64,000 nucleotides of DNA, taken from NCBI RefSeq assembly GCF_988243305.1, contig NZ_OZ547136.1; one strand, given 5' to 3'. The number at the start of each line of letters is the position of its first letter. Position 1 is the first letter of the stretch. The notes under the pieces were generated by a model. The model saw nothing but the letters and a program-made list of their open reading frames with translations, made no database searches and was not told where the DNA came from. Below are positions 50,224-64,000 of the stretch, one piece after another. Both the position numbers and the translations under genes were made by a program.

Positions 50224-50541
50224 AGTTAGCTCCAATTTCCGTAAGGCAAAAAAAAAGAAAGGTAACTTCCCCCGCGAGAGGGAAGTTACCTTTCTCATTA
50301 TCTCTGGTAACTGGAGATAATTTTTATCATAAGGGCATAATCGCTAATGTGATCGTAATCACAGTGTGATATTCGAATTGTCAAATAATTTTAAAAAGCA
50401 GAAGCGTGATTACTCTCACACAACACCACTACTTTCCATGTTATTTCTTATTGCAATTACTAGAGACCTGAGAAAAGTAATCCACCTGAAAGGGCGGCTT
50501 ACTTTTCTCTTTTTTTTGTCTATTACAAATGGGAATACGAT

Positions 50542-59217: not shown

Positions 59218-60643
59218 TAATGCCGATCAGTTAAGGATCAGTTGACCGATCCAGTGGCTGTGTAAGAATCCGGAAACGCTCACTTGTTTCCGGATTTTTT
59301 TATGCACATTGGACAGGCTCTTGATCTGGTATCCCGTTACGATTCTCTGCGTAACCCACTGACTTCTCTGGGGGATTACCTCGACCCCGAACTCATCTCT
59401 CGTTGCCTTGCCGAATCAGGTACTGTAACGCTACGCAAGCGCCGTCTTCCCCTCGAAATGATGGTCTGGTGTATTGTTGGCATGGCGCTTGAGCGTAAAG
59501 AACCTCTTCACCAGATTGTGAATCGCCTGGACATCATGCTGCCGGGCAATCGCCCCTTCGTTGCCCCCAGTGCCGTTATTCAGGCCCGCCAGCGCCTGGG
59601 AAGTGAGGCTGTCCGCCGCGTGTTCACGAAAACAGCGCAGCTCTGGCATAACGCCACGCCGCATCCGCACTGGTGCGGCCTGACCCTGCTGGCCATCGAT
59701 GGTGTGTTCTGGCGCACACCGGATACACCAGAGAACGATGCAGCCTTCCCCCGCCAGACACATGCCGGGAACCCGGCGCTCTACCCGCAGGTCAAAATGG
59801 TCTGCCAGATGGAACTGACCAGCCATCTGCTGACGGCTGCAGCCTTCGGCACGATGAAGAACAGCGAAAATGAGCTTGCTGAGCAACTTATAGAACAAAC
59901 CGGCGATAACACTCTGACGTTAATGGATAAAGGTTATTACTCACTGGGACTGTTAAATGCCTGGAGCCTGGCGGGAGAACACCGCCACTGGATGATACCT
60001 CTCAGAAAGGGAGCGCAATATGAAGAGATCAGAAAACTGGGTAAAGGCGATCATCTGGTGAAGCTGAAAACCAGCCCGCAGGCACGAAAAAAGTGGCCGG
60101 GACTGGGAAATGAAGTGACAGCCCGCCTGCTGACCGTGACGCGCAAAGGAAAAGTCTGCCATCTGCTGACGTCGATGACGGACGCCATGCGCTTCCCCGG
60201 AGGAGAAATGGCGGATCTGTACAGTCATCGCTGGGAAATCGAACTGGGATACAGGGAGATAAAACAGACGATGCAACTGAGCAGGCTGACGCTGAGAAGT
60301 AAAAAACCGGAGCTTGTGGAGCAAGAGCTGTGGGGTGTCTTACTGGCTTATAATCTGGTGAGATATCAGATGATTAAAATGGCGGAACATCTGAAAGGTT
60401 ACTGGCCGAATCAACTGAGTTTCTCAGAATCATGTGGAATGGTGATGAGAATGCTGATGACATTGCAGGGCGCTTCACCGGGACGTATACCGGAGCTGAT
60501 GCGCGATCTTGCAAGTATGGGACAACTTGTGAAATTACCGACAAGAAGGGAAAGGGCCTTCCCGAGAGTGGTAAAGGAGAGGCCCTGGAAATACCCCACA
60601 GCCCCGAAAAAGAGCCAGTCAGTTGCTTAACTGACTGGCATTA
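59218..60643 (+). mobile_element. IS4 insertion sequence (1426 bp) with imperfect terminal inverted repeats and a flanking direct repeat
   Basis: Left end TAATGCCGATCAGTTAAGGATCAG, right end reverse complement TAATGCCAGTCAGTTAAGCAACTG; CAGCCCGAAGGCTG present immediately outside both ends (59204-59217 and 60644-60657); length equals the canonical IS4 length. Confidence 0.9.
59302..60630 (+). CDS. insG: IS4 transposase
   Basis: 442 aa from [40 protein letters not shown]..., recognised as the IS4 transposase. Confidence 0.9.
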
Positions 60644-60684
60644 CAGCCCGAAGGCTGGCATTTTTAAATCAGATAAAGTCAGAC

Positions 60685-61998
<1,314 letters not shown>

Positions 61999-62069
61999 TC
62001 ACTAGTTAAACTGAAACTCCAGACAAACAACGCGTACCCAGGGTACGCGTTGCCGTTCTAACTTTTTTC

Positions 62070-63722
<1,653 letters not shown>

Positions 63723-63935
63723 TTAGGTTGAAAAGACGATGGAATAACCAGGACGGGAAAGCAGTATACCCGAACATGACCTGTGCCACAAACTTTCATT
63801 ATCCCTCCTCTTCGCCAGCGCACTATTGAAATCAGGAGTGAGAAAATAGCCCCTTTGGGGTAAATGTTTTTGACGCAAATCAAGCGCTTGTCATTTAAAA
63901 AATGACACAAATCGCGCTTGACCACGTAATTCCCT

Positions 63936-64000
63936 TAGAGATCAATTTCCTGCCGTTTTACCTGTTGCCAGACTTCTTCCATTGTTTCGAGGTCAACACC
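63936..64000 (-). CDS. mazG: Nucleoside triphosphate pyrophosphohydrolase MazG, C-terminal 21 codons (partial, runs off window end)
   Basis: Reverse complement reads ...GVDLETMEEVWQQVKRQEIDL-stop; position upstream of pyrG matches the mazG-pyrG-eno order. Confidence 0.55.

Follow-up and report, generated by a model that had tools for sequence, protein, structure and literature searches.

A conserved sense-strand RNA hairpin between pyrG and eno of Escherichia coli, a probable site of RNase III-dependent processing of the eno mRNA

The pyrG–eno Locus

The window (the whole 64-kb stretch of DNA that was analyzed) is from Escherichia coli. The 301 bases round the palindrome studied here were 100% identical to many complete genomes of this species and were matched in 5425 of 5426. 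The matching genomes, K-12 among them, annotate the flanking genes in RefSeq as pyrG (CTP synthase) and eno (enolase). The gap between the two genes, 61984–62069, is 86 nt long in the window and 87 nt long in K-12. The main features of the locus are as follows.

60685–61983, minus strand: eno open reading frame, 432 aa (RefSeq annotation of identical E. coli sequence)
61981–61983, minus strand: eno start codon ATG (open reading frame and annotation)
62028–62052, minus strand: core perfect palindrome (inverted-repeat search and sequence; the same in K-12)
62070–62072, minus strand: pyrG stop codon TAA (open reading frame and annotation)
62070–63707, minus strand: pyrG open reading frame, 545 aa (RefSeq annotation of identical E. 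coli sequence)

The preliminary description of this DNA reported a perfect palindrome at 62028–62052 between the pyrG stop and the eno start, and the search bore out both the palindrome and its place in the 86-nt gap. The arms, 62028–62039 (CAACGCGTACCC) and 62041–62052 (GGGTACGCGTTG), are 12 nt each, 100% complementary and separated by a 1-nt spacer. The string given earlier, AACGCGTACCC-aggg-GTACGCGTT, contained one surplus G and under-reported the arms as 9–11 nt. The palindrome starts 17 nt past the pyrG stop and ends 44 nt ahead of the eno ATG. Its sense RNA, CAACGCGUACC-CUG-GGUACGCGUUG, forms an 11-bp stem with a 3-nt loop (62039–62041). RefSeq feature annotation was absent beneath the palindrome in the 5425 E. 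coli genomes.

The palindrome was essentially invariant within E. coli. Six genomes departed from this, with a 49-nt hairpin region only 90–95% identical to the window; one of them, strain E1739, has three extra nucleotides (ACC) inserted in the 5′ arm beside the loop. Each arm contains a MluI site (ACGCGT; 62030–62035 and 62045–62050). A Dcm site (CCWGG) lies in the loop at 62037–62043; it is absent as a conserved site from Enterobacter, Citrobacter and Kluyvera, and is probably incidental.

Predicted Fold of the Intergenic RNA

When the window was dinucleotide-shuffled 200 times, a shuffle held on average 0.095 perfect repeats with 12-nt arms and a spacer of at most 12 nt; only 8% held any such repeat. 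The fold-energy calculation proposed in the preliminary description gave a stable structure at every length: −17.0 kcal/mol for the 25-mer palindrome (z = −4.6), −22.2 kcal/mol for the 41-nt sense segment (z = −5.1) and −28.7 kcal/mol for the 86-nt intergenic RNA (z = −3.7; equaled in 0/200 shuffles). A chance palindrome was rejected on the shuffle results. The predicted RNA has the following parts.

62026–62054, minus strand: upper stem, 13 bp including two basal G·U pairs (GG...UU); fold, the part supported by covariation
62019–62061, minus strand: extended hairpin, with a lower stem UUAGA/UCUGG (62057–62061 with 62019–62023) under a 2 × 2 internal loop; predicted, with weak comparative support
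62020–62027, minus strand: U-rich tail UUUGUCUG, adjoining the core stem on its 3′ side; 5 T in 8, invariant in Enterobacteriaceae
61984–62012, minus strand: AU-rich single-stranded eno leader with the Shine-Dalgarno sequence GAGGAA at 61990–61995; near-invariant across Enterobacterales

The minimum-energy fold of this strain contains an additional 4-bp helix (GAAA/UUUC), which brings the hairpin to a total of 13 + 5 + 4 = 22 bp across internal loops. The 22-bp predicted hairpin covers nearly all of the 5′ part of the gap and leaves the Shine-Dalgarno sequence unpaired in the predicted folds. The sole difference between K-12 and the window in the extended hairpin is A/G at 62056, within the internal loop.

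One other perfect inverted repeat with arms of at least 12 nt was found in the window, at 50251–50295 (AAAGAAAGGUAACUUCCC...GGGAAGUUACCUUUCU; 14-nt arms, 8-nt spacer). It is preceded by an A-run and followed by a T-rich segment, and looks like a two-way terminator.

Conservation and Covariation of the Hairpin

The comparative set comprised 80 eno loci, one genome per species. The upstream neighbor of eno is pyrG in Enterobacterales, Vibrionales, Aeromonas, Shewanella and Alteromonadales, and almost all pyrG–eno-adjacent loci of these groups have a strong hairpin 0–20 nt past the pyrG stop. The stem sequences differ, as the following examples show.

Citrobacter stem: GGCAAUGCACCC/GGGUGCAUUGUU
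Kluyvera stem: GGCAGCGCCCC/GGGGCGUUGUU
Edwardsiella stem: GGCAGGCGCGGGAC/GUUCCGCGUCUGUC
Photorhabdus stem: GUAAGUGGCGG/CCGCCACUUAC

With plain MAFFT, the pairs next to the loop fell out of register across the 30 intergenic regions aligned, and a covariance-model alignment was used instead. The pairing results were as follows.

16 Enterobacteriaceae: 15 pairs tested; 98.7% of cells paired; 4 compensatory pairs
35 sequences, upper stem (covariance-model alignment, biased towards the structure of the model itself): 12 pairs tested; 96% of cells paired; 11 compensatory pairs
35 sequences, lower stem (same alignment, same bias): 5 pairs tested; 85% of cells paired; 2 compensatory pairs
15 Vibrionaceae, aligned separately on their own hairpin: 11 pairs tested; 6 compensatory pairs

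The pairing seen in Enterobacteriaceae was reached in 0/500 shuffles, and slid controls were 28–55% paired. The lower stem showed zero covariation among the 16 Enterobacteriaceae and was broken in three of them; one of its pairs was broken in eight sequences of the 35-sequence covariance-model alignment with no compensating change. The loop ranges from 3 to 11 nt among the hairpins at this position. In the fold output of three genera, the arms appear to be parted by an insertion of ~100–140 nt.

The gap is usually ~80 nt long and reaches 159–193 nt in Erwinia endophytica (locus L011, 1008–1200), Mangrovibacter (L013, 1014–1200) and Budvicia (L019, 1042–1200). In the first two, the insertion that appears to part the arms is ~110–140 nt long and strongly structured, and the whole gap folds at −68 and −76 kcal/mol, respectively. 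The center of the Erwinia endophytica insert may resemble an ERIC element. The covariance model of the hairpin also gave a weak match in the window at 50438–50519 on the minus strand (22.6 bits, E = 0.13), a hairpin with A-rich and U-rich flanks that was most likely matched by chance.

The eno leader UUUAACUUGUACUGAGGAAAACCUA (61984–62012 in the window, ~1172–1200 in loci L004–L033) varied hardly at all across Enterobacterales, Photorhabdus, Providencia and Arsenophonus among them, and the variant UUUAACUAGUGACUUGAGG was confined to E. coli and E. albertii. Both the Shine-Dalgarno sequence and the RNase G site known from the literature lie in this segment. Two conserved GGA motifs lie 26 nt apart on the minus strand, at 62018–62020 (in UCUGGAG) and at 61991–61993 (in the Shine-Dalgarno sequence GAGGAA). 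The first is in the 3′ strand of the lower stem, where the sequence is conserved and covariation is lacking. Binding of CsrA at the two motifs is a possibility; a literature search on CsrA and GGA motifs at this site found nothing specific. Most Vibrio loci examined (L026, L031, L034, L038, L041, L043, L044 and L046) have a conserved TTGACA after the hairpin tail (UUUGACAUU), ~10 nt downstream of the hairpin. It could be the −35 element of an eno promoter or just conserved leader sequence.

Strand and Nature of the Selected Structure

The ratio of G·U to A·C cells in the paired columns was 64:0, 96:7 and 30:3 in the three alignments. The sense fold (−22.2 kcal/mol) was 3.4 kcal/mol more stable than the antisense fold (−18.8 kcal/mol). 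Since a G·U pair is an A·C mismatch on the other strand, the large excess of G·U over A·C identifies the selected structure as an RNA hairpin of the sense pyrG–eno transcript. The structure exists, is under selection for pairing and is sense-strand specific. The substitution pattern indicates that what is selected is not a DNA operator, a cruciform or an antisense-RNA hairpin.

Published Processing of the eno Leader

The 5′ ends of eno mRNA in this region have been mapped in several studies. Three positions fall in the gap.

62060, minus strand: published 5′ end −77 ("enoP6"), in the 5′ strand of the lower stem (coordinate derived from the eno ATG at 61983)
62010, minus strand: published 5′ end −27 (Olvera 2009, PMC2759082)
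62001, minus strand: published end −18 of the RNase G product (Clarke 2014, PMC4191395)

Olvera 2009 (PMC2759082) reported eno 5′ ends at −27, −77 and −212 and assigned them as promoters, with "no predictions" of a promoter listed for these, and reported further starts at −731, −760 and −903. A Cra-regulated promoter has been reported upstream of eno. The enoP3 sequence at −903 in the Olvera list contains a putative Cra-like box, which would place the Cra-regulated promoter far from the palindrome. Lee 2019 (PMC6872547) found four RNase III-dependent 5′ ends in a "large hairpin" of the 87-nt eno 5′ UTR, upstream of the Shine-Dalgarno sequence. Two of the four coincide with the former "enoP4" and "enoP6" starts; the "starts" at −27 and −77 are RNase III-dependent, and the −77 end was reassigned to RNase III cleavage site 1. 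The same study showed that the 87-nt eno UTR alone makes a reporter responsive to RNase III as well as RNase G, and that an eno product (band 3) accumulates in an rng deletion, i.e., without RNase G. Romero 2014, citing Ow 2003, likewise gives RNase III-dependent 5′ ends in the eno leader. According to Clarke 2014 (PMC4191395), cleavage at an RNase G-dependent site cuts the eno leader down to 18 nt; an RNase E site in the pyrG–eno intergenic region is also in the list of that study. Eno and pyrG are not mentioned in the text of the RNase III map of Altuvia 2018, eno appears in Gordon 2017 in the discussion only, and the SMRT-Cappable-seq paper does not mention the hairpin locus.

The preliminary description suggested a processing site that separates pyrG–eno co-transcripts from eno transcripts, and this is supported by the RNase III-dependent ends published within the hairpin (PMC6872547). 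It also held that a lack of transcript ends near the palindrome would speak against such a role; such ends exist, with 5′ ends mapped at −77 and −27 (PMC2759082) and four ends that are RNase III-dependent (PMC6872547). The hairpin as an RNase III-cut site that controls enolase is already known and will not surprise a specialist.

Proposed Role of the Hairpin

We consider the palindrome to be, with moderate confidence, a conserved stem-loop of the sense mRNA at which an RNase III-dependent cut frees the eno mRNA for RNase G. Every mapped eno start outside the gap (−212, −731, −760, −903 and the pyrG promoter; positions from PMC2759082) lies upstream of the hairpin, so that every eno mRNA is made carrying it. 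The RNase III-dependent cut in the hairpin region removes the pyrG part together with the structure, and the eno mRNA that is left has a 5′ monophosphate and only a short, AU-rich leader. Trimming by RNase G then brings this leader down to 18 nt; the shortening is believed to lower translation, and faster decay goes along with it. The structure, its conservation and its strand come from the present analysis; the nuclease dependence and the positions of the 5′ ends come from the literature on E. coli K-12 only.

Some features of the predicted hairpin speak against this role. E. coli RNase III substrates usually have about two helical turns (20 bp or more, with internal loops tolerated). The contiguous helix supported by covariation is just 13 bp, below this length; 22 bp is reached only with lower stems that lack covariation and are broken in some genera. 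Lee 2019 (PMC6872547), working from an M-fold structure, described sites 1 and 3 as paired cuts that leave a 2-nt 3′ overhang; in the fold predicted here, −77 and −27 do not face each other with such a stagger.

Alternative Explanations

Lee 2019 (PMC6872547) also bears on what RNase III acts on. The cuts that purified RNase III made in a model hairpin RNA did not coincide with the in vivo ends, and for this reason a cis-antisense RNA was proposed, which was needed in vitro to reproduce in vivo product 1. When −45 to −28 was replaced on the chromosome, a plasmid reporter no longer responded to RNase III; the response came back with a fragment encoding the antisense RNA (PMC6872547). A promoter-like site on the plus strand at 61499–61527 (TTGTCA-17-GATGAT), inside eno, would start an antisense RNA at ~eno +450; this predicted start nearly coincides with TIS1 (+451), the antisense start inferred from RNA-seq (Lee 2019, PMC6872547). 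Because the in vitro cuts do not match the in vivo ends and only the duplex gave product 1, the direct substrate of RNase III may be either the hairpin or the duplex. A stronger form of this model, in which RNase III acts on the eno mRNA/antisense duplex, the hairpin has no role of its own and the palindrome is incidental, seems improbable. The G·U pairs of the hairpin work on the sense strand only, and a sense–antisense duplex requires no internal symmetry, yet intramolecular pairing has been kept by compensatory changes in two bacterial orders. From this we infer that the hairpin itself, and not just the duplex, is what selection keeps for processing. An element acting as DNA, i.e., the operator of a dimeric regulator, a part of a promoter (enoP4-P5) or a palindrome of a repeated or mobile kind such as REP, is more doubtful still and very improbable. 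The dyad symmetry is perfect, and a 105-bp fragment with the palindrome drove a cat reporter (Olvera 2009, PMC2759082). However, the bases change while complementarity is kept, the loop varies in length and the arms appear to be split in three genera, as described above, and the G·U:A·C asymmetry is that of an RNA. A sigma-70 promoter (enoP4-P5/enoP6) was rejected, as no −35/−10-like site was found on the minus strand in 61984–62069 and the ends are RNase III-dependent (PMC6872547). A REP/BIME-type repeat was rejected on copy number: the palindrome occurs at one site in the 64-kb window and at a median of one place, with a maximum of two, in the 5425 genomes. A permissive Rfam search of 60400–64000 gave nothing relevant; its best hit was 17.5 bits to the nrdJ RNA on the plus strand (gathering threshold 40.3, E = 7.5). 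A "pyrG motif" is described in a Breaker-lab study.

The hairpin might instead be mainly a leaky intrinsic terminator and/or a 3′-end stabilizer of the pyrG mRNA, with the RNase III cut secondary, which we judge rather unlikely as the main role. Part of the polymerases would then stop at UUUGUCU; the pyrG mRNA so formed would be protected by the hairpin, and the transcript ratio of pyrG to eno would be set in this way. The stem of 11–13 bp, the 3-nt loop and the energy of −17.0 kcal/mol are those of a terminator hairpin (GC-rich, at least 5 bp, loop of 3–8 nt); UUU and 5 U in 8 nt follow, and across Enterobacteriaceae this tail stays the same where the stem covaries. At the corresponding position, the hairpin tail is T-rich in Vibrio and Photobacterium, and in Aeromonas, Grimontia, Shewanella and Pseudoalteromonas it is a full T-run. 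The terminator-like hairpin of eno itself served as a comparator.

60614–60639, minus strand: eno's own terminator-like hairpin, tail TCTTTTTCGG (scan, fold and score)

A crude hairpin-plus-T-tract score was 5.3 for the pyrG–eno hairpin and 0.9 for this comparator, i.e., no worse, as a rough comparison only, the formula being an approximate one of the d'Aubenton-Carafa type, used with modern energies and prone to mis-score hairpins with pairing A/U tracts. Against termination, the tail UUUGUCUGG is weak and U-poor, with a U-tract broken by G and C. At least 5 U in the 8 nt right after the stem are expected of a terminator; the count is 5 of 8 when the stem is taken to finish at the last Watson–Crick pair and 3 of 8 with the two G·U pairs included. 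The hairpin was passed over by the consensus terminator scan, probably because the scan runs the stem on through the G·U pairs and so shortens the tail. Efficient termination would also starve the very highly expressed eno, all of whose starts lie upstream. The Term-seq tables of Adams 2021 list no 3′ end here and none between K-12 positions 2904326 and 2908331, but they are uninformative on this point because eno's own terminator is likewise absent. The TERMITe supplement gave spurious number matches only, and no report of termination at the pyrG–eno hairpin was found in the literature. Termination or 3′-end stabilization could be a secondary role of the hairpin beside the preferred one as a processing site. 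Adams 2021 also lists strong RNA 3′ ends 36 nt into the pyrG open reading frame (window ~63669–63671; K-12 2909628/2909630, minus strand), flagged "uORF" and with Rho-dependent read-through, and another 3′ end inside pyrG (window ~62372; K-12 2908331, minus strand). These are unrelated to the palindrome and are part of the regulation of the same operon.

Comparison with Known Systems

The nearest parallel to the proposed pathway is the adhE 5′ leader of E. coli, in which RNase III cuts a leader hairpin and RNase G then cuts the monophosphorylated product to leave an 18-nt leader; the adhE and eno pathways are described side by side in the same papers (including PMC4191395). The adhE hairpin belongs to the 5′ UTR of a monocistronic mRNA and occludes the ribosome-binding site, whereas the pyrG–eno hairpin is intercistronic, 17 nt past the pyrG stop, and is not paired with the Shine-Dalgarno sequence in the predicted folds. 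The rpsO–pnp operon of E. coli is alike in having an RNase III site pair in a hairpin between co-transcribed genes, which starts the control of the downstream mRNA. In rpsO–pnp, the hairpin cut by RNase III is distinct from the Rho-independent terminator, and control works via PNPase autoregulation. By contrast, one hairpin would have to do both jobs at pyrG–eno, and the downstream nuclease is RNase G.

REP/BIME and ERIC elements are also GC-rich intergenic palindromes in enterobacterial operons. The pyrG–eno palindrome is set apart from them by copy number and covariation, being single copy, vertically conserved at one locus and covarying. Rho-independent terminators and leaky attenuators share its GC-rich stem, its short loop soon past a stop codon and its U residues, and the same-position hairpins of other gammaproteobacteria are textbook-like. 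The pyrG–eno hairpin differs in its interrupted U-tract (UUUGUCUGG) and in having been passed over by the scan. One tentative and rather doubtful account would join the two roles. An ancient pyrG terminator common to Vibrionales, Enterobacterales and their neighbors may have lost most of its U-tract in Enterobacteriaceae and become an RNase III/RNase G gate for enolase, and it may still terminate a tunable fraction of transcripts. With the pyrG stop just 17 nt upstream, the ribosome terminating there could influence how large this fraction is, as happens at the rph–pyrE attenuator. If this were true, the hairpin would also be a conserved cis-RNA structure without an Rfam family.

Significance

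Enolase belongs both to core glycolysis and to the RNA degradosome. The hairpin sits where the eno mRNA is parted from pyrG and passed to RNase G, by a mechanism that has been published. The present analysis adds that the hairpin has been kept by compensatory evolution in two bacterial orders, that it is sense-strand specific, and that the hairpins in the same place outside Enterobacteriaceae resemble ordinary terminators. These comparative results add modestly to what is known and leave the overall picture unchanged; they bear on the question raised by Lee 2019, whether the hairpin or a sense–antisense duplex underlies the processing of eno mRNA.
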